Origin: a phage
Reading direction: 5' to 3' (one strand)
NCBI GenBank assembly: GCA_012212665.1
Contig: GCA_012212665.1_4517.1
Length of the DNA stretch: 64,000 bases
Within the stretch, counting starts at the first letter, position 1, and the number at the start of each line of letters is the position of its first letter. Of this stretch, positions 7,548 through 60,803 are shown in pieces. The translations under genes and the position numbers were made by a program. The notes beneath the pieces are model-generated. The model worked only from the letters and a program-made list of their open reading frames with translations, was not told the origin of the DNA and searched no databases.

Positions 7548-7577
7548 ACTATACCATAATCCTACTGTGTTGTAAAC
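7548..7577 (-). promoter_or_regulatory. Early promoter, copy 1 of a perfectly duplicated 38-bp promoter block
   Basis: Minus strand GTTTAC-18 nt-TATAGT with TGG extended -10; block 7541..7578 is identical to 8053..8090. Confidence 0.55.
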
Positions 7578-8059: not shown

Positions 8060-8089
8060 ACTATACCATAATCCTACTGTGTTGTAAAC
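8060..8089 (-). promoter_or_regulatory. Early promoter, copy 2 of the duplicated 38-bp block
   Basis: Identical to 7548..7577; GTTTAC -35 and TGgTATAGT -10. Confidence 0.55.
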
Positions 8090-18794: not shown

Positions 18795-18824
18795 ATTATA
18801 CTCCAACCATCCTTGGTTGTAAAC
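18795..18824 (-). promoter_or_regulatory. Early promoter (conserved family block)
   Basis: Minus strand GTTTAC-18 nt-TATAAT; 30-bp block nearly identical to 60774..60803 and 61794..61822. Confidence 0.55.
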
Positions 18825-24855: not shown

Positions 24856-25092
24856 TTAACCACTTACTGGTGTAGGGGTAAACATTGCAGCGTTCTTAGT
24901 ACGCCAATCTGCTGCGTCAGTCACCACAGTAGTGTAAGCAGCTTTTTCAGACGGGAAAGTCTGATAATGAGAATCTGCAATCCGATGTTCGTTTGAATAA
25001 ATCTCAAACGGAACAGAAACTTCCATACCTTTAACTTCTTTGCCTTCACCAGCAGGATGCGTAAAGGTTTTGATGTTTACATAACCACCCAT
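24856..25092 (-). CDS. soc: Small outer capsid protein Soc
   Basis: 78 aa; matches T4 Soc (GYVNIKTF, HYQTFPSEKAAY.TV). Confidence 0.85.
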   Translation of the reverse strand: MGGYVNIKTFTHPAGEGKEVKGMEVSVPFEIYSNEHRIADSHYQTFPSEKAAYTTVVTDAADWRTKNAAMFTPTPVSG

Positions 25093-25123: not shown

Positions 25124-25131
25124 TATTTATA
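25124..25131 (-). promoter_or_regulatory. Late promoter (TATAAATA) upstream of soc
   Basis: Exact TATAAATA on the minus strand about 30 nt upstream of the soc start; soc is a late capsid gene. Confidence 0.6.
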
Positions 25132-25747: not shown

Positions 25748-25945
25748 ATGTTTAAACTTCCATCGTTAATCAACGCTATTAAAGGCAATAAAAAGAAAAC
25801 TGCTATCGCCGCAATAGTTGTAGGTGGCATTATTTCATGGAACTTCGGGATTGCACCATTGTTAGTTGCCCATGGTATTATAGTTCCTTCTGTTCCATTG
25901 GATACTGTAGTTGATTTGGCCTTTGCTATTATAGGGCTTGTTTAA
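25748..25945 (+). CDS. Small membrane protein (plus strand)
   Basis: 65 aa, two predicted TM segments, strong AAGGAG Shine-Dalgarno 7 nt upstream of the ATG; convergent with gene 61. Confidence 0.45.
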   Translation: MFKLPSLINAIKGNKKKTAIAAIVVGGIISWNFGIAPLLVAHGIIVPSVPLDTVVDLAFAIIGLV

Positions 25946-26964
25946 ATCTTCGAATAACGAGATAATCTCATTTTAGCATGCAACCCACTTGAAATATTCT
26001 GTTTCATATATTCTAAAATTTCTTGTGGTGTTGCATTTTCTTTCATTACCATATCATTCACATCCTTTGAACTCCATGGAGCTCGGTCCCAGAACATAAC
26101 ACGTTCGCCTGCATCTACTAATCGCTTCATACGAGCTATAGTATCCGGATGCCTAGGTTCATTATCCATCACCCATACCCGACGTTCTTTAAATGGTACC
26201 ACATCTAAATCTATTGAACCGCCTGTAATAGCGATTGCATTGGGTATGAATAAACTATCAATAGGGCCTTCCATTACCCAGACGTCTCCTTCCTTAACAC
26301 GTTCAACACCATAAATTTTTGTTGCAGACTCAAACGCTTTAATAGTTATATATTTCTGAGGAGCATCTTTGCGAAGTGCACGTCCTTGAAATGACTCAGC
26401 CTTCCCGTCTTTATTAAAAATAGGAATCACTAAACGCGGTTCTGGAATCTCTTTCTTATACGTGCCTGGTTGAATCTTGTTGACCAATTTAGGCCATTCT
26501 AATGTGAACCATAATCTGTTCCACGATTCTTTAGGAATACACCGAGACTTAACATATTTCACAATAGGATGCTCTTCAGGCAACTTGTCCAGACGAGAAC
26601 AAGACGGCAAAGAATTTATAGTCTTTTTCTCCGGTTCTGGTTTATGTTCAGGAACCTTTTCAATCTTTGGTTCCATTCTAGCTTTTTCTTTACGAACTTC
26701 CATTAGATATTCACGATAAAGCTCTTCGTCATACTCTTTTAAGTATCCGGAAATCGTATTATGATATTGACAGTTATAGCAATGCACATTACCTGGAGTA
26801 CCGCCATAATACCATCCGCGGGCTTTCATTGCATCTGTCTGAGAGTCGCCACAAACTGGACAACGAAACGTTAATTTAAATGTGCTTGAATTATTGATTT
26901 GTCTAAAACGAGGGAGGTGAGAAAACGCACGATAAGCAAATTCATTATCTATCCATTCAGCCAT
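25942..26964 (-). CDS. 61: DNA primase gp61
   Basis: 340 aa; N-terminal zinc ribbon CPVCGDS...CYNC and TOPRIM-like core; T4 synteny 61-41. Confidence 0.9.
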   Translation of the reverse strand: MAEWIDNEFAYRAFSHLPRFRQINNSSTFKLTFRCPVCGDSQTDAMKARGWYYGGTPGNVHCYNCQYHNTISGYLKEYDEELYREYLMEVRKEKARMEPKIEKVPEHKPEPEKKTINSLPSCSRLDKLPEEHPIVKYVKSRCIPKESWNRLWFTLEWPKLVNKIQPGTYKKEIPEPRLVIPIFNKDGKAESFQGRALRKDAPQKYITIKAFESATKIYGVERVKEGDVWVMEGPIDSLFIPNAIAITGGSIDLDVVPFKERRVWVMDNEPRHPDTIARMKRLVDAGERVMFWDRAPWSSKDVNDMVMKENATPQEILEYMKQNISSGLHAKMRLSRYSKI

Positions 26965-27003
26965 AGTATTCTCCAGAGGCCTTAAATTAATAAGGCCATC
27001 ATA

Positions 27004-27498
27004 TCACAACTTATTGATATTTACTTTAATTCGCTTTCTTTTCTTGGAAGGAATTTGTTCTGGACCTTTATTTACGACTGCACCTGTAGTTGTTCCTGAT
27101 GCAATAGCTTGAGGGCTGCCACCTGAATCACCGGCCACCATATCCTCAAATAAAGGGAGTTCTTTAAATATTTCTTTCTGCTGTTCTTCCGTAATGTTAT
27201 AGCGTGAAGCTACAGCACTCCAGGCAGACATCATTGAGGCCATTCCATTAAGACCTGGAACAGTACTCATCATTCGCTTCATTGAACGAACTGAAGCGTG
27301 AAAAGGTGTATAAGCCGCTTTCTCTTCGGGAGTAGAAGGACGTTTAAGAACACTTCCACGTTCGTCGATTATTTTGGCTTCGTACGCTTTCCATTCGGTA
27401 AAAGGTTTTTGCATTAGTCGAATAAACTTATATGCGTAAACAGAATCTATTGCAGTGTTAATAATACCCATAGGTACCTCCTGAGTATATTTAATCAA
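27004..27498 (-). CDS. Hypothetical protein (61.1 position)
   Basis: ORF of 164 aa with basic C-terminal tail. Confidence 0.5.
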   Translation of the reverse strand: MIKYTQEVPMGIINTAIDSVYAYKFIRLMQKPFTEWKAYEAKIIDERGSVLKRPSTPEEKAAYTPFHASVRSMKRMMSTVPGLNGMASMMSAWSAVASRYNITEEQQKEIFKELPLFEDMVAGDSGGSPQAIASGTTTGAVVNKGPEQIPSKKRKRIKVNINKL

Positions 27499-27688
27499 TC
27501 ACAAAGATCGCTTTATCACCGTTCGCATCTGTGACTTCATATGTAGTGTCTTCATAGTGTGGAATATTCCAAATTACACCATCATTAGCTTTTACGCTAA
27601 TATGGTATTGGTGTTTTGAAACAACTTCATAATCTTCAAAACTTGTAAAAACACTAATTTTAGAACCAGTGCAAATTGCAGTAGTCAT
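27491..27688 (-). CDS. Hypothetical protein
   Basis: ORF of 65 aa. Confidence 0.4.
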   Translation of the reverse strand: MTTAICTGSKISVFTSFEDYEVVSKHQYHISVKANDGVIWNIPHYEDTTYEVTDANGDKAIFVID

Positions 27689-27689
27689 T

Positions 27690-28349
27690 TTAACCTCGAT
27701 TCATAAATGCATTAAATATTTGGTCATCAACAGAAATTTCTAATTCGGCTTCAATTGCTTCAGCCTTTTCTTCAGGTGGTAATTCGTATCCACACACTAC
27801 AATTTTTTCATCGATATCAAAATATACAGAAGCAATACGATTAATGTTACTTTCAGTTAAGTCTAAATCAACATCAACATCTTTTTGACCTACACTTAAA
27901 GGATAACTAATACGGGTTATTTTATTATCTTTAACAAAGAGTCCACCAACATACTCTGTACTACGTTTGAAGTTTACACGTTTCCGAATTGAAAGATATG
28001 ATACATCTTTACCGTGAGCTCGGCTCATAGGACATAATGAATAGCTAGAATAAGAGATGTCAAATCCTACACCTTCAATATGAGCCAACGTGTCATGAGT
28101 AAACCAATTATAATCATATGCCAAATCCATTAAATTATAATATGTGAAAGGCACTGGATTAACATCATATGTTGTACCTTTAAAATCAGCCCAGGCAACG
28201 ATTTCGTTATCTTTAACAATTACAAAAATTACACCAATATGGTATCCGTTATTATTTTCATTCGGCGTTATATTATAACATTGTGCATTAGGAAATTTAC
28301 CATATTTAAATGGTGCGTTTTTGTGCATGTAATAAATCATATTATTCAC
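27690..28349 (-). CDS. Hypothetical protein
   Basis: ORF of 219 aa. Confidence 0.5.
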   Translation of the reverse strand: MNNMIYYMHKNAPFKYGKFPNAQCYNITPNENNNGYHIGVIFVIVKDNEIVAWADFKGTTYDVNPVPFTYYNLMDLAYDYNWFTHDTLAHIEGVGFDISYSSYSLCPMSRAHGKDVSYLSIRKRVNFKRSTEYVGGLFVKDNKITRISYPLSVGQKDVDVDLDLTESNINRIASVYFDIDEKIVVCGYELPPEEKAEAIEAELEISVDDQIFNAFMNRG

Positions 28350-28635
28350 CTGTGATTTCGGTTACGATATCTTTGTTATCGAAATTAGGGTCACAATACA
28401 AAACATAGTTGTACTGCATGATACCGCCAGACTTAAGTTGTTCAACAACTTTATTAACCATATTAGGACGGTCTCGTTTAGTGATGTTCATGATATCAGA
28501 GAAGATTTGTTGTTCAACATCTTCTTGATTTGCAGTCATTGACCACTCACAGAGGTCTTTATCATAACCTGCTGTAACTGGAGCTGGTGCACATGATACT
28601 GCGAGTAAGATTGCTGCCAATGATAACTTTTTCAT
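28342..28635 (-). CDS. sp: Spackle periplasmic protein (superinfection exclusion, lysozyme inhibitor)
   Basis: 97 aa with signal peptide; GYDKDLCEWSMTA and KSGG.MQYNYVLYCD match T4 Sp (gene 61.3). Confidence 0.8.
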   Translation of the reverse strand: MKKLSLAAILLAVSCAPAPVTAGYDKDLCEWSMTANQEDVEQQIFSDIMNITKRDRPNMVNKVVEQLKSGGIMQYNYVLYCDPNFDNKDIVTEITGE

Positions 28636-28663
28636 TTTAACTCCTTAGTTGATTTGATAGGAC

Positions 28664-28694
28664 TACTATACCATAGTCCATCTATAATGTAAAC
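28664..28694 (-). promoter_or_regulatory. Early promoter upstream of sp
   Basis: Minus strand GTTTAC...TGGTATAGT; shares the GGACTACTATACCATA block with 7541 and 8053. Confidence 0.5.
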
Positions 28695-28698
28695 AAGT

Positions 28699-28947
28699 TT
28701 ATTCTTTTTCGCGAATAATAATTACTTGTTGAGGCTGCTGAGCAGATTTCTTTTCGGCAACGATAGACCAAATTAAAGTTCCAATCCAACCAACCATCGT
28801 CCAGTTAAAGAGTAAAGATACAAAGAAGATTGCTGTTGTGCTTTTTGTGCCACGAATAAGTGCGATTACCCAAGGCAACATGTAAATGATGATCGAACCA
28901 ATACCTGCGATTAAAACTGCTACTGAACTAGCTACGAATAATTCCAT
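28699..28947 (-). CDS. Small membrane protein, superinfection-immunity-like
   Basis: 82 aa with two TM helices; motif WVIALIRG resembles the superinfection immunity protein family. Confidence 0.45.
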   Translation of the reverse strand: MELFVASSVAVLIAGIGSIIIYMLPWVIALIRGTKSTTAIFFVSLLFNWTMVGWIGTLIWSIVAEKKSAQQPQQVIIIREKE

Positions 28948-29008
28948 GTTAATTTCCTCTTGATTTGTTATGTTTATAGTATCTTGTTTTAACTTTGGCG
29001 TAAACCAA

Positions 29009-29377
29009 TTAATTAAATTTGTTTAAACGTTCAATACACTGGACGTAGTTATTCGCGATTTGTTTCTGGGTAGGCTCTTTACCAGTTGTTTCAACATAGC
29101 GAATGAATGCGATTTCAGTAGCCTGTAAGCAATGTTCTTTAACGCGTTGTTCTTTTGACAATGCTACAGTATCAGAGTCACGATAACGTTGAGCATGGGC
29201 ATCAGCTTGAATCATTCGATTACCTACAGTAACCGGGTCTTCTACTTCAACTTTAGGTTGGTTGTACTGTTTAACATTCGGGTTATAAATCAATTGGCCA
29301 ACATTATTAGGGATAAAGCCGTGAGCACCACATCCAGTTAATCCAAATACCATTGCTAAAGCGATTAATTTTTTCAT
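29009..29377 (-). CDS. Putative lipoprotein
   Basis: 122 aa; signal peptide with lipobox LTGC. Confidence 0.5.
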   Translation of the reverse strand: MKKLIALAMVFGLTGCGAHGFIPNNVGQLIYNPNVKQYNQPKVEVEDPVTVGNRMIQADAHAQRYRDSDTVALSKEQRVKEHCLQATEIAFIRYVETTGKEPTQKQIANNYVQCIERLNKFN

Positions 29378-29448
29378 TTCAATTTCCTCTGTAGTTGATA
29401 GAAAGATAGTAACACAGTATGCGGTGCTTGTAAACAGTTATTTTAAAA

Positions 29449-29637
29449 TTATCGAAAATCTGCTTCGAAAACTTTCTCGTCATTAATAAATGCTTTAACT
29501 AATGCATTGTTCACTTCAGCAAGTTGTACCGTAACCCACTCGATTTCTTCGCGATCACCTGATAATATGATATCTTTAGTGAACATCTCGCCGCTTTTAA
29601 ACCAGCCAATAAAAGTAACTTTAGTTAATTTGCTCAT
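29449..29637 (-). CDS. dmd: Dmd antitoxin (inhibitor of host RnlA/LsoA toxins)
   Basis: About 62 aa; matches T4 Dmd (V.F.GWFK...MFTK.I......V....AEVN.ALVKAFI.D.KV.E.D.R). Confidence 0.75.
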   Translation of the reverse strand: MSKLTKVTFIGWFKSGEMFTKDIILSGDREEIEWVTVQLAEVNNALVKAFINDEKVFEADFR

Positions 29638-29951
29638 ATTTCCTCGCAAAATGCCCATTCAGCATGATAAACTGTAGCACCTTTAGTATCATTCATTTGA
29701 ACTACATCTACCGGAGAAATTACTCGATAGAGACGTGGTTCACCTCCATAAGAGCGTGCTGCTCGTCCTGCGTAAATCTTTGCTAAACCGATATCTTCAG
29801 TAAAGAATACACGATTCAAGTTTTTCTTACGTCCGGTTTCAGACAGAACTCCTGTTTCTTCAGGAGGACAAAGCATGTTTTCGATTTTAGCTGAACTACT
29901 TGAACCGTGATAAAAAATCTTAAATTCTGCTTTACAATCGATGGTTTTCAT
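29634..29951 (-). CDS. Hypothetical protein
   Basis: ORF of 105 aa with GGAGAA Shine-Dalgarno. Confidence 0.5.
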   Translation of the reverse strand: MKTIDCKAEFKIFYHGSSSSAKIENMLCPPEETGVLSETGRKKNLNRVFFTEDIGLAKIYAGRAARSYGGEPRLYRVISPVDVVQMNDTKGATVYHAEWAFCEEI

Positions 29952-29978
29952 TTTGTTCTCCAGTAGTTGATAGGTCTA

Positions 29979-30006
29979 TAATAACACAACTACTGGAGAA
30001 GTAAAC
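29979..30006 (-). promoter_or_regulatory. Early promoter inside a Shine-Dalgarno-sequestering inverted repeat
   Basis: Minus strand GTTTAC-17 nt-TATTAT; 12-bp arms CUCCAGUAGUUG / CAACUACUGGAG flank the -10 and the 3' arm carries the Shine-Dalgarno. Confidence 0.55.
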
Positions 30007-30381
30007 TTAAAAACGTAATTTAGATATATCTGCGTTGATTTCGTTTTGGTTTGCGTCGTATGCAATTAAACGAACCGCTTTAGATGGGTCATTCAATGCA
30101 TAGAAATGATGGAACATTGCTCGAACGATATCACCATTTACGAGTTCTACCTGGATAGGAGAACCTTTTTCGAGTTGGAAATGTTCATAAGCTTTGATGG
30201 TTCGCAGATAATCAAGTTTTTGATTTCCAGCTCCAACTATTTGTACGATACGTTTGCCCATGTTTTCCATACGAGATACAATAGTTTTAGGAGCAAGAAT
30301 AACGTAGGTTGCCAGTGGAGAAACTACTTCAACAGTTGTGTTTTCGGTGATTGCAGTAAAAATTGCTTGAGACATATTCAT
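30007..30381 (-). CDS. Hypothetical protein
   Basis: ORF of 124 aa. Confidence 0.5.
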   Translation of the reverse strand: MNMSQAIFTAITENTTVEVVSPLATYVILAPKTIVSRMENMGKRIVQIVGAGNQKLDYLRTIKAYEHFQLEKGSPIQVELVNGDIVRAMFHHFYALNDPSKAVRLIAYDANQNEINADISKLRF

Positions 30382-30410
30382 AATGTTTTCCTCTTGGTTG
30401 GTGTAAGTTC

Positions 30411-30440
30411 ATCATATCATGCCTAGAGGAAGATGTAAAC
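30411..30440 (-). promoter_or_regulatory. Early promoter
   Basis: Minus strand GTTTACATC-...-TGATATGAT. Confidence 0.45.
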
Positions 30441-30447
30441 CCCGAAA

Positions 30448-30463
30448 GGAGACCGAAGTCTCC
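30448..30463. terminator. UUCG-tetraloop hairpin downstream of gene 41 (terminator-like, strand ambiguous)
   Basis: GGAGAC-CGAA-GUCUCC; a T-run follows on the plus strand and UUUCGGGG on the minus strand. Confidence 0.4.
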
Positions 30464-30469
30464 TTTTTA

Positions 30470-31912
30470 TTAAAATTTTAACTCATTGGCTAAGCTATCT
30501 AGGTCCGCCCGTGTTGCTTTGGCTTTACCTACGCGTTCCGTGCGATTCACCTCTGCCTGACGCATCTGAGCACCTGCGTTTTCATTTACCGTGTTAGGTG
30601 TGTTCATGCCTTCTTGCTCAATCTCAACCCATTTCTGATTGCCTTTACGTACACCCATCAAGAACTTGTTCCACTTATTCTTATCACCGTATCGTGATTT
30701 GATTTGTTTGATAAGTTGTTGTTCAGCTTGTGCAAGTTCTTCGGTTTCAATTACAGCCAACATGAAATCTGCCGTTGCTGGTAAACCTGCTGATTCTGCG
30801 ATATCACTCATGTTCATGTCTGAAGCATCCCATGCTGCACGTCCTACTTGAGCTGCAGTCCATAGAACTGTTTCAGATTCTACTGCTAATGCACGAAGTT
30901 CTTCTGCGATAGCTTTAACTAATGTGTAGCTATTTTCAGTGTAAACTCTGATACGACAAGACCCACAAATACCTAAGTAATCGACTATGATTACAGACGG
31001 CACAAAGTTCTTCTTGAGTTTCAATTCATTAAGCAATGCACGGAATGTATTAGCATTAGCTCCACCAGTAGGATACTGTTTGACTACTAAACGTCCTAAT
31101 GTTGATTTTGAACGCCATTTTTCCATCTTGGCTTTATATTCAGCATAAGATACATTACCATCATCGATATCATCGAGTGATACGTCAAGCATGTTTGCAT
31201 CTATACGCTTAGCACAAACTTCTTCAGCCATTTCCATGGAAATATAAAGAACATTATGTCCTGTTTGAAGATAATCTGCAGCAAGTGAACAAAGGCCTAA
31301 AGATTTACCAACGTTAACACCGGCCATTAAAACGTTCAGTGTACCTGTTTCTGCACCGCCTTTGGTGATTTTATTCAAAATGTTTAATTTGAACGGGACC
31401 TTACGTGCTTTATTTAGATAAGAAAGCCAGCGTGCTTCATAGTCTTCCATCCAGTCATGACCAACATAACTATCAAACGAAATTGAAAGTGCTTGACGCA
31501 TAATATCAGGAATAGCTCCTACGTCAGGCATTTTCTTGTTACGTTGTTCTGGAGGTAGTTCAGCATTAGACTGAATCTCAATGATTTTGGATGTAGCATT
31601 ATACATCGCTTTTTGCTGAACATATTTCTCAGTTTCTTTAACCAACCATTCATGGTCTTCAGGAGTGTCAGCCAATTTTTCAATTAGGTCTGAAGTTCCT
31701 TTATATTCGGCTTCAGTTAAAGAACTGTTATCTAAAGCCACCTTTAATGCATTGATAGATGGCATTGCATTATATTCGTTAACGTGGCTCTTTATAATTT
31801 TAAAGACATTTTTTGCCGGTCCACGCTCAAAATACTCAGAATCCATATAAGGCCAGACCTTAGAAAAATAAGCCTGGTCATATACGAGATGAGACAAAAT
31901 AATTTCTACCAC
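30470..31912 (-). CDS. 41: Replicative DNA helicase gp41 (DnaB-like)
   Basis: 480 aa; Walker A GVNVGKS and DnaB-family motifs; T4 synteny. Confidence 0.9.
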   Translation of the reverse strand: MVEIILSHLVYDQAYFSKVWPYMDSEYFERGPAKNVFKIIKSHVNEYNAMPSINALKVALDNSSLTEAEYKGTSDLIEKLADTPEDHEWLVKETEKYVQQKAMYNATSKIIEIQSNAELPPEQRNKKMPDVGAIPDIMRQALSISFDSYVGHDWMEDYEARWLSYLNKARKVPFKLNILNKITKGGAETGTLNVLMAGVNVGKSLGLCSLAADYLQTGHNVLYISMEMAEEVCAKRIDANMLDVSLDDIDDGNVSYAEYKAKMEKWRSKSTLGRLVVKQYPTGGANANTFRALLNELKLKKNFVPSVIIVDYLGICGSCRIRVYTENSYTLVKAIAEELRALAVESETVLWTAAQVGRAAWDASDMNMSDIAESAGLPATADFMLAVIETEELAQAEQQLIKQIKSRYGDKNKWNKFLMGVRKGNQKWVEIEQEGMNTPNTVNENAGAQMRQAEVNRTERVGKAKATRADLDSLANELKF

Positions 31913-60773: not shown

Positions 60774-60803
60774 ATTATACTCCAACCATCCTTGGTTGTA
60801 AAC
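60774..60803 (-). promoter_or_regulatory. Early promoter (conserved family block)
   Basis: TTATACTCCAACCATCCTTGGTTGTAAAC on the forward strand, i.e. GTTTAC-18 nt-TATAAT on the minus strand; near-identical to 18795..18824. Confidence 0.55.

Follow-up and report, generated by a model that had tools for sequence, protein, structure and literature searches.

Early accessory genes in the 41-61 region of a Mosigvirus phage, with a putative minimal ADP-ribosyltransferase and a candidate head-associated gp61.1

The stretch of phage DNA examined here, 64,000 nucleotides from GenBank assembly GCA_012212665.1 (contig GCA_012212665.1_4517.1; hereafter the window), carries at positions 27004-30381 a run of ten small genes between those for the primase (61) and the replicative helicase (41). 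This interval is the plastic 41-61 accessory region of a Mosigvirus, an RB69-like T-even phage. Our overall reading, to which we give a probability of roughly 0.8, is that of an early accessory region in which characterised genes lie alongside a putative enzyme, a 105-amino-acid (aa) protein with a predicted minimal ADP-ribosyltransferase (ART) fold, and alongside gp61.1, a candidate substrate of the prohead protease gp21. As a whole, the cluster is well sampled, already annotated and textbook T-even biology; of the ten genes, five fall into characterised or named families, and one product, AdfA, has a published anti-defence role. Two computational results are new. The first is the placing of the 105-aa protein, on its modelled fold, in a minimal Arr/Tpt1-like branch of ARTs shared with polyvalent proteins, and the second is an apparent sequence homology between the C-terminus of gp61.1 and the cleavage site and N-fist of the capsid protein gp23. 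Weighing against the reading as a whole, every function has been transferred by homology or fold.

The surroundings of the interval are familiar ones. Over its full length, the stretch 26900-30500 is 97.7-99.4% identical to the 40 best-matching Escherichia and Shigella phage records, and 153 phage records cover at least 80% of it. Both p000v and RB69, which are among the phages matching the stretch, are classified as Straboviridae, Tevenvirinae, Mosigvirus, and there is a gene-for-gene correspondence with the annotations of p000v, CAU_ECP01 and RB69. The ten genes are all co-oriented on the minus strand and fill the interval. Three of them carry most of the argument:

29634..29951, minus strand: 105-aa protein of minimal ART fold (predicted fold), equivalent to RB69ORF040c and phrog_2110
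27004..27471, minus strand: gp61.1, long form of 155 aa (phrog_2086, E=1e-73)
27690..28340, minus strand: adfA (61.2), anti-DarT factor A, 216 aa from the annotated ATG (PF23813, E=8e-119, full length)

The early character of the region can be seen in its promoters. When the window was scanned for a T4-early-like pattern, GTTTAC-N15-19-TANNNT, and compared with 100 shuffles, 23 matches were found against 4.9 expected, and none of the shuffles reached 23. Of these, five lie exactly within the interval's five intergenic gaps. An earlier reading made from the sequence alone (the sequence-only reading) had given many of these genes early promoters of their own, and at the level of consensus matches this holds:

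30411..30440, minus strand: T4-early-type promoter match GTTTACA-17-TATGAT, TG-extended, upstream of the 124-aa open reading frame (ORF) (pattern scan)
29978..30006, minus strand: T4-early-type promoter match GTTTACT-16-TATTAT, TG-extended, upstream of the 105-aa ART-fold gene and dmd (pattern scan)
29406..29435, minus strand: T4-early-type promoter match GTTTACA-17-TACTAT, upstream of imm.1 (pattern scan)
28976..29005, minus strand: T4-early-type promoter match GTTTACG-17-TACTAT, upstream of imm (pattern scan, sequence)
28665..28694, minus strand: T4-early-type promoter match GTTTACA-17-TATAGT, TG-extended, upstream of sp and heading the series sp-adfA-ORF033c-61.1-61 (pattern scan)

All ten genes would be read in one direction from at least five such promoters, so that their products would be made in the first minutes of infection. 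Work on T4 points the same way, with 61.2, sp, 61.4, dmd and imm.1 early in both RNA and protein, and with 61.1 early in RNA and its protein left unclassified in the T4 proteome time course (PMC9697503 supplement). Matches to the late-promoter motif TATAAATA number only three in the window.

The 105-aa protein, called mini-ART below, is the most novel member of the cluster in terms of fold. Its model shows the split beta-sheet of ARTs, its nearest neighbours are Tpt1/KptA, Arr and AcrIF11, and its best structural match is Tpt1/KptA, with 75 of 179 residues aligned. The core is only about 93 aa long. When aligned with Arr-3 by hhalign, the FYHG of mini-ART falls on the FYHG of Arr, and Phe49 falls on the Tyr of the Arr motif. 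Conservation among 103 family members follows the same framework: His15-Gly16 is invariant (103/103), near-invariance extends to Pro29-Pro30, Thr33, Glu38, Arg41, Phe49, Thr51, Ala57, Tyr60, Gly69-Gly70 and Gly91, and Lys43 and Arg63 are well conserved. Tyr60 lies in the helix that follows the Phe49 strand. These catalytic-residue assignments come from secondary structure and alignment rather than from coordinates.

A profile search of 1.84 billion representative proteins recovered 249 relatives of mini-ART. Many are about 100 aa long, and the domain also occurs within proteins of up to 3924 aa, where it is accompanied by ART-PolyVal, NUDIX, CHAP, a lambda-type portal together with a 2H/Acb1-like phosphoesterase, GNAT together with Toprim, or DUF7178. 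Such a setting is of the polyvalent type, a class of proteins proposed to be delivered along with DNA by phages and conjugative elements (PMC5512222); the copy in the window is a solo domain. Two relatives, P0238 (27.5 bits) and P0263 (29.4 bits), exceed the Pfam cut-off of 25 for Arr-ms (PF12120), and mini-ART itself reaches 12.9 bits against a cut-off of 130 for the NCBIfam rifampin ART model NF033144. Because some relatives pass the Arr-ms threshold and the window protein falls below it, the family is best described as a sister group of Arr and not as a rifampin ART equivalog.

Each of the known ART groups differs from mini-ART in some respect. Arr proteins (PF12120; PDB 9iaf) are about 140-150 aa long and possess a C-terminal part that the 105-aa protein lacks; they also use rifamycin as a substrate, and nothing points to rifamycin for mini-ART. 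Tpt1/KptA (PDB 9ld3, 7kw9) has an RNA-binding N-terminal lobe that is missing here, its sequence similarity to mini-ART is undetectable, and in the loci examined (Kanagawavirus, Lazarusvirus and Aeromonas phage 65) mini-ART has no conserved RNA ligase or 2H gene as a partner. AcrIF11 is reportedly confined to Pseudomonas elements and targets Cas8f, whereas mini-ART is highly conserved across many host genera. Finally, T4 has ARTs of its own, Alt, ModA and ModB, which like AcrIF11 act on host proteins; they are members of the R-S-E clade (PMC5512222), unlike mini-ART with its His-aromatic signature.

The gene is widespread among phages. Homologues were found in 610 phage records, from phages of Escherichia, Klebsiella, Acinetobacter, Aeromonas, Vibrio and others, with 60-80% identity maintained across three Straboviridae subfamilies, and a few submitters have labelled them "ADP-ribosyl transferase". 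The usual location is the 41-61 region (Kanagawavirus, Lazarusvirus); in Aeromonas phage 65 the gene lies beside tk, and the T4 locus lacks it. A conserved downstream partner was considered and rejected, the downstream genes being different in Kanagawavirus, Lazarusvirus and Aeromonas phage 65. Likewise, the N-terminal MKTIDCKAEF was considered as a capsid targeting sequence and set aside, given the misfits at positions 4, 7 and 8 and the many homologues that have no such extension. Our literature search found no paper on the function of mini-ART, and in a survey of viral NAD+ (nicotinamide adenine dinucleotide) systems, the only Arr-family ARTs mentioned are those of actinophages and one rhizobiophage (PMC9503650).

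From its modelled fold and conserved residues, mini-ART is most likely an active NAD+-dependent transferase that is made early and whose target is conserved across host genera. It would be a stand-alone, minimal enzyme belonging to the H-Y-E (His-aromatic) clade. Its gene would be transcribed together with dmd and coupled to it in translation; the mini-ART stop codon and the dmd start codon overlap (ATGA), and an early promoter of its own lies upstream. The target it would modify early in infection is most likely a conserved host component or a nucleic-acid or small-molecule one. Because the catalytic acid is missing and a conserved loop is basic (SE-GRKKN, Arg63), a protein side chain is no likelier a substrate than a phosphate-bearing or small-molecule one. 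A more specific and less probable proposal, which we put forward tentatively, is that mini-ART is the founding phage member of a minimal ART branch that transfers ADP-ribose to a phosphate-bearing or small-molecule target such as RNA or DNA ends or a nucleotide immune signal, and not to protein side chains. If true, T4-like phages, and the polyvalent proteins of other elements, would have a new enzymatic way of disarming a conserved host response. Mini-ART offers a tractable candidate for a new NAD+-dependent activity in host takeover or counter-defence.

Several observations weigh against an active enzyme. The window protein scores 13.9 bits against the Arr-ms cut-off of 25, and PDB sequence searches, both with the single sequence and with a profile, gave no match. 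The position of the strand-2 Tyr is held by Phe49 (Phe in 101 and Tyr in 2 of the 103 members), so that the aromatic ring is kept and the hydroxyl lost. At the start of strand 5, the place of the catalytic Glu/Asp, the 103 members have no conserved acidic residue (consensus G-[TAS]-[TS]-V); an Asp that aligns near the Arr "EDDPN" is unconserved, and Glu103 is conserved only among T4-like members. With the acid missing and Phe in place of Tyr, the protein could be inactive or of unusual chemistry. It is conceivable, then, that mini-ART is not an enzyme at all and that, its ART fold kept and its catalysis lost, it binds NAD+ or ADP-ribose or serves as a decoy, for example as a sponge for NAD-derived immune signals or as a mimic that titrates an ART-binding partner; the very small core and the sub-threshold Arr-ms score would also suit such a role. 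We consider this a minority possibility. The invariant His-Gly and the near-invariant Glu38, Arg41 and Tyr60 suggest that an active site has been preserved, and the domain keeps company with other enzymes in polyvalent proteins. Furthermore, the best structural match, Tpt1/KptA, itself works without the catalytic Glu.

Another means by which mini-ART might act is in RNA end processing after the manner of Tpt1/KptA, with ADP-ribose transferred to a 2′- or 5′-phosphate of RNA or DNA, and with Dmd and phage RNA repair as its partners against RNase toxins. This is unlikely. Only the NAD-binding lobe is present and the N-terminal RNA-binding lobe of Tpt1 is missing (hence the 75 of 179 residues aligned), the linkage to dmd is specific to Mosigvirus, with unrelated downstream genes in other genera, and the sequence affinity is to Arr and not to KptA.

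The second new result concerns gp61.1, which combines a helical N-domain, two I/L-x-E sites (ITE95 and LFE109), an N-fist-like peptide (DMVAGDSGG...GAVVNKGP) and a basic tail (KKRKR). In the AlphaFold2 (AF2) model, the N-domain is predicted, with moderate confidence, to be helical, and the C-terminal motif appears disordered yet is strongly conserved. The family, near-universal in Straboviridae, is found in 1474 phage records, 589 of which match over at least 80% of the 155-aa form; in T4 and its close relatives only the C-terminal ~54 aa are left. The sequence-only reading had started this gene at an upstream TTG (27004..27498). The ATG at 27471 is the better start, having a ribosome-binding site and being the one used in related records.

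The likeness to gp23 was found by several routes. By BLASTP, the gp61.1 segment LFE-DMVAGDSGGSPQAIASGTTTGAVVNKGP matches T4 gp23 residues 63-93, LTEAEIGGDHGYNATNIAAGQTSGAVTQIGP, with E=1e-4, and by hhalign the two families align with a probability of 94.6% (E=7e-8). When the gp61.1 profile was searched against all PDB sequences with hmmsearch, gp23 chains were the sole significant matches (E=3e-7, gp23 residues ~49-102), and on the mature form, gp23*, the match falls at residues 3-36. The homologous segment of gp61.1 corresponds to window positions 27004-27180 and to positions 1467-1631 of the T4 locus (L003). The prohead protease gp21 cuts gp23 after Glu65. An [ILMV]-x-E precedes (M/V)VAGD in 39 of 40 diverse gp61.1 homologues with the spacing of LTE65|AEIGGD in gp23, and in the window protein LFE109 stands directly before DMVAGD. 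Such I/L-x-E sites are those that gp21 prefers (PMC12991175, PMC9026906). The N-fist comprises the first 25 residues of gp23*, touches four neighbouring subunits and helps to form the Soc site (PMC9958956).

The T4 protein adds a further resemblance. Its start, MKTFKEFIKE, which is followed by DMVAGD, is identical at seven of ten positions to MKTYQEFIAE, the capsid targeting sequence of IPII and IPIII. Positions 7, 8 and 10 are among those that agree, and position 4 is aromatic; the agreement takes in positions reported to matter for targeting and processing under the rules worked out for such sequences (PMC9026906). No other ORF of the window has a capsid-targeting-like N-terminus. Compared with T4 gp23, gp61.1 shares the cleavage-site spacing before (V/I)(A/G)GD but lacks the HK97-fold body; compared with gp23, IPII and IPIII together, it has an unrelated helical N-domain, a basic tail and early transcription, and its presence in the head is predicted.

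From these sequence similarities, gp61.1 would most likely be a gp21 prohead-protease substrate, and the C-terminal peptide set free by cleavage would mimic the N-fist of mature gp23. It is accordingly graded here as most likely head-associated rather than anti-defence, the role for which it had been put forward as a candidate. Whichever interpretation holds, a gene near-universal in 1474 records, bearing a gp23-like cleavage site and N-fist, does not have the profile of a variable anti-defence gene. Few unassigned genes are as widespread among T4-like phages as gp61.1, which now has a concrete, testable hypothesis attached to it where it had none before. Our literature search found no characterised function for it, and the "major capsid protein" labels that it bears in a few records and UniRef entries are probably due to its similarity to gp23.

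Certain features sit uneasily with a head-associated protein. In the 155-aa gp61.1 of the window, the targeting-like segment KEIFKELPLFE is internal and not N-terminal, no late promoter TATAAATA lies near the gene in the window, and T4 gp61.1, as mentioned above, is transcribed early, with a protein unclassified in the time course. To our knowledge, gp61.1 has not been reported in T4 virions. Co-variation between the gp61.1 motif and the gp23 N-fist is powerless as a test, because the gp23 region is ~96% identical between T4 and Mosigvirus.

The main rival for gp61.1 is an early decoy or regulator, in which its capsid-like peptide would occupy a host sensor of capsid or of gp21, or compete as a substrate and so temper gp21 in the cytoplasm. 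Early transcription with no late promoter nearby would suit this, as would a motif that copies the gp23 cleavage site and the residues following it, and it has been reported that gp21 cleavage of I/L-x-E loops can trigger host immunity (PMC12991175). On balance, such a role seems improbable: a sensor should be set off, not silenced, by a mimic of its activating ligand, a gene so nearly universal in phages of many hosts points to a role alongside conserved machinery of the phage itself, and the short T4 form carries a capsid-targeting-like N-terminus. A gp21-processed, head-associated gp61.1 thus stays the preferred interpretation.

Two other observations touch on gp61.1. In the RB69 reference sequence the gene is frameshifted after "...STPEEK" (ORF031/ORF032c, L004:2318-2784), and all 155 aa are intact here and in most relatives; the frameshift is either a laboratory-strain mutation or an old sequencing error, and the split suggests that the N-terminal domain is dispensable. 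Separately, a 78-aa ORF at 24856-25092 on the minus strand is probably soc, the gene for the small outer capsid protein, judging from where it lies with respect to RB69 soc and gene 56. A TATAAATA late-promoter match lies just upstream of it (25124-25131, minus strand), and a head gene is therefore located about 2 kb from gp61.1.

The third gene, at 27690-28340, encodes AdfA, the published anti-DarT factor, and its function is already known. The protein scores 395.1 bits against a cut-off of 27, with residues 4-219 covering profile positions 1-211 of the 211 in PF23813. It is 97% identical to gp61.2 of RB69 and 68% identical to that of T4, and it occupies the same place, immediately downstream of sp. 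Here the sequence-only reading, which had listed 27690..28349 as a candidate for anti-defence, was right about the role and began the gene at a GTG, too far upstream; in annotations it starts from the ATG at 28340. AdfA occurs in 487 phage records and is called a "hypothetical protein" in every one of those listed, so annotation lags behind the literature.

AdfA came to light through RB69 mutants that escaped the toxin-antitoxin defence DarTG1 (PMC11257639). It binds DarT, a DNA ADP-ribosyltransferase toxin. An R164H change in AdfA conferred binding and neutralisation of DarT1; position 164 is His in T4 and in evolved RB69 and is Arg in wild-type RB69, Bas46 and Bas47, and the Arg164 form did not bind or neutralise the E. 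coli DarT1 tested (PMC11257639). In the window protein, the residue at RB69 position 164 (residue 168 from the MIYY start) is Arg, and the segment reads "NINRIAS" like RB69 where T4 reads "IINHIAS". It thus lacks His164, with which AdfA binds and neutralises E. coli DarT1, a point that tells against activity on that particular DarT1 and not against membership in the family. Perhaps this allele is tuned to another DarT. The AdfA of this phage would stand one mutation away from neutralising DarT1.

Shorter relatives of AdfA were also noticed. The family phrog_4122 matches AdfA residues 129-219, and in Klebsiella phage KLB31 (Kanagawavirus) a 126-aa ORF of the corresponding 41-61 region (L005:3306-3686) ends in "...SQIFNCWMKK", resembling the AdfA C-terminus, DDQIFNAFMNRG. 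From these two matches, shorter proteins like the C-terminal part of AdfA may exist in other genera.

The sequence-only reading had proposed all of the unassigned neighbours as anti-defence or exclusion genes. That all four of these ORFs (61.1, 61.2, the 105-aa and the 124-aa) have such roles is very improbable, since gp61.1 is near-universal and carries a capsid-derived motif, unlike fast-turnover anti-defence genes, since the 60-80% identity that mini-ART keeps among phages with widely differing hosts is not typical of proteins that inhibit fast-evolving defences, and since the 124-aa ORF has no informative match. The proposal stands for AdfA and is plausible for mini-ART; it is unlikely for gp61.1, and no function can be inferred for the 124-aa ORF. 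Profile searches against anti-defence families, which had been suggested as a check, likewise gave a divided answer, with PF23813 matching 27690-28340 and the PADLOC models matching none of the nine proteins from the interval. The same reading had staked its case on the unassigned ORFs being conserved and expressed in related phages; they are present in 135 to 1474 records, and the T4 homologues are early. Its general picture of an early accessory cluster with many exclusion and antitoxin functions is right as well.

The better-known members of the cluster are as they had been described, that is, Spackle, an Imm-like protein with two transmembrane segments, a lipobox lipoprotein and Dmd, and all four have matches in Pfam, in the PDB or in T4:

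28342..28635, minus strand: sp (61.3), Spackle, periplasmic superinfection exclusion (PF25676, E=1e-42, 145 bits; PDB)
28699..28947, minus strand: imm, superinfection immunity membrane protein (PF14373, E=2e-15, 56.9 bits against a cut-off of 27.9)
29009..29377, minus strand: imm.1 homologue, predicted lipoprotein, DUF5481 (PF17578, E=4e-9, 37.3 bits against a cut-off of 27)
29449..29637, minus strand: dmd, antitoxin against the RnlA/LsoA RNase toxins (PF17587, E=1e-20, 74 bits)

A check for signal peptides and membrane segments agreed with the expected envelope locations. Spackle has a signal-like hydrophobic segment at residues 4-24 and, in a PDB sequence search, matched the solved structures 6x6o (E=1.4e-39) and 7cn6. 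Imm has two hydrophobic segments and the sequence LPWVIALIRG, and a pairwise comparison puts its identity with T4 Imm at 64% (E=4e-37). The Imm.1 homologue has the lipobox LTGC (MKKLIALAMVFGLTGC), is 32% identical to T4 Imm.1 (pairwise, E=1e-18), is annotated as imm.1 in RB69 and lies directly upstream of imm, as in T4. For Dmd, the PDB sequence search gave 5i8j (E=6.8e-37) and 5hy3_B, "Antitoxin Dmd" (E=3.3e-17). In T4, Imm is an inner-membrane protein that stops the entry of DNA from superinfecting phage, Spackle is a periplasmic inhibitor of the tail lysozyme gp5 of the superinfecting phage, and Dmd binds and neutralises the RnlA/LsoA RNase toxins. By analogy, Imm, Imm.1, Spackle and Dmd of the window would act as their T4 homologues do.

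The remaining genes and landmarks of the locus are as follows:

30470..31912, minus strand: gene 41, replicative helicase, upstream flank (ORF list; annotated as helicase 41 in p000v and RB69)
30007..30381, minus strand: 124-aa ORFan, equivalent to RB69ORF041c (phrog_10668, E=3e-86)
29447..29448, no strand: deletion junction, 206 bp lost together with gene 61.4 (alignment, annotations, sequence)
27491..27688, minus strand: 65-aa acidic ORF, equivalent to RB69ORF033c (phrog_3249, E=1e-33)
25942..26964, minus strand: gene 61, primase, downstream flank (ORF list; annotations of p000v and RB69)

The 65-aa gene had been left out of the sequence-only reading. It is present in 266 phage records and had no match in a PDB sequence search. 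The 124-aa ORFan, which has its own early promoter, forms only two clusters among 5.8 billion proteins and occurs in 135 phage records, all Mosigvirus except two distant ones; searches of Pfam, NCBIfam, PADLOC and the PDB gave nothing informative for it. Their narrow distribution makes both ORFs fit the description of accessory genes. Within the 124-aa ORF, residues ~40-70 (window 30180-30260; KRIVQIVGAGNQKLDYLRTIK) resemble a strand, Gly-rich loop and helix of the kind seen in nucleotide-binding motifs, and weak, non-significant matches were to a SIS-domain phosphoheptose isomerase (E=0.08) and a dehydroquinase model (E=0.003).

The genes are packed closely. The gaps along sp-adfA-ORF033c-61.1-61 are 1, 1, 19 and 39 bp, and where there is no intergenic gap the genes are tightly packed or overlapping (mini-ART/dmd; sp/adfA/ORF033c/61.1). 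In RB69, the 41-61 region has the same gene order and orientation, with proteins 97-100% identical to those described here; RB69 differs in keeping gene 61.4, deleted here but also kept by the two closest relatives, and in having gp61.1 split into two ORFs by the frameshift, where it is intact here. The 206-bp deletion is clean, lies beside the dmd stop codon and also takes the last residue of Dmd. Across Mosigvirus, 61.4 (a 70-aa gene) is polymorphic, being present in RB69, CAU_ECP01 and PECP20 and absent from p000v and the window.

T4 has a shorter set at the same locus, namely 61.1, 61.2, sp, 61.4 and dmd, and shares with the window the C-terminal part of 61.1 along with 61.2, sp and dmd. 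Three genes found here, ORF033c, mini-ART and ORF041c, are missing from the T4 locus. The imm.1-imm pair of T4 lies between genes 43 and 42 and not in the 41-61 region as here, so the pair is a moved module.

Beyond these families, an NCBIfam search of the interval proteins yielded only sub-threshold noise, and an Rfam search of positions 26500-31000 gave a single sub-threshold microRNA match, taken as chance. A GGAGAC-TTCG-GTCTCC hairpin with a UUCG tetraloop occurs at about 30448-30463, directly behind the stop codon of gene 41 and a little ahead of the next early promoter. Its T residues are too few for the terminator scan to call it, and it may be either a terminator or an RNA-stabilising element. 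Elsewhere in the window, 30-nt early-promoter-like sequences occur as identical pairs, one at 7548-7577 and 8060-8089 and the other at 18795-18824 and 60774-60803 (sequences GTTTACAACACAGTAGGATTATGGTATAGT and GTTTACAACCAAGGATGGTTGGAGTATAAT), and such identity at distant sites suggests duplicated promoter cassettes or repeated segments.

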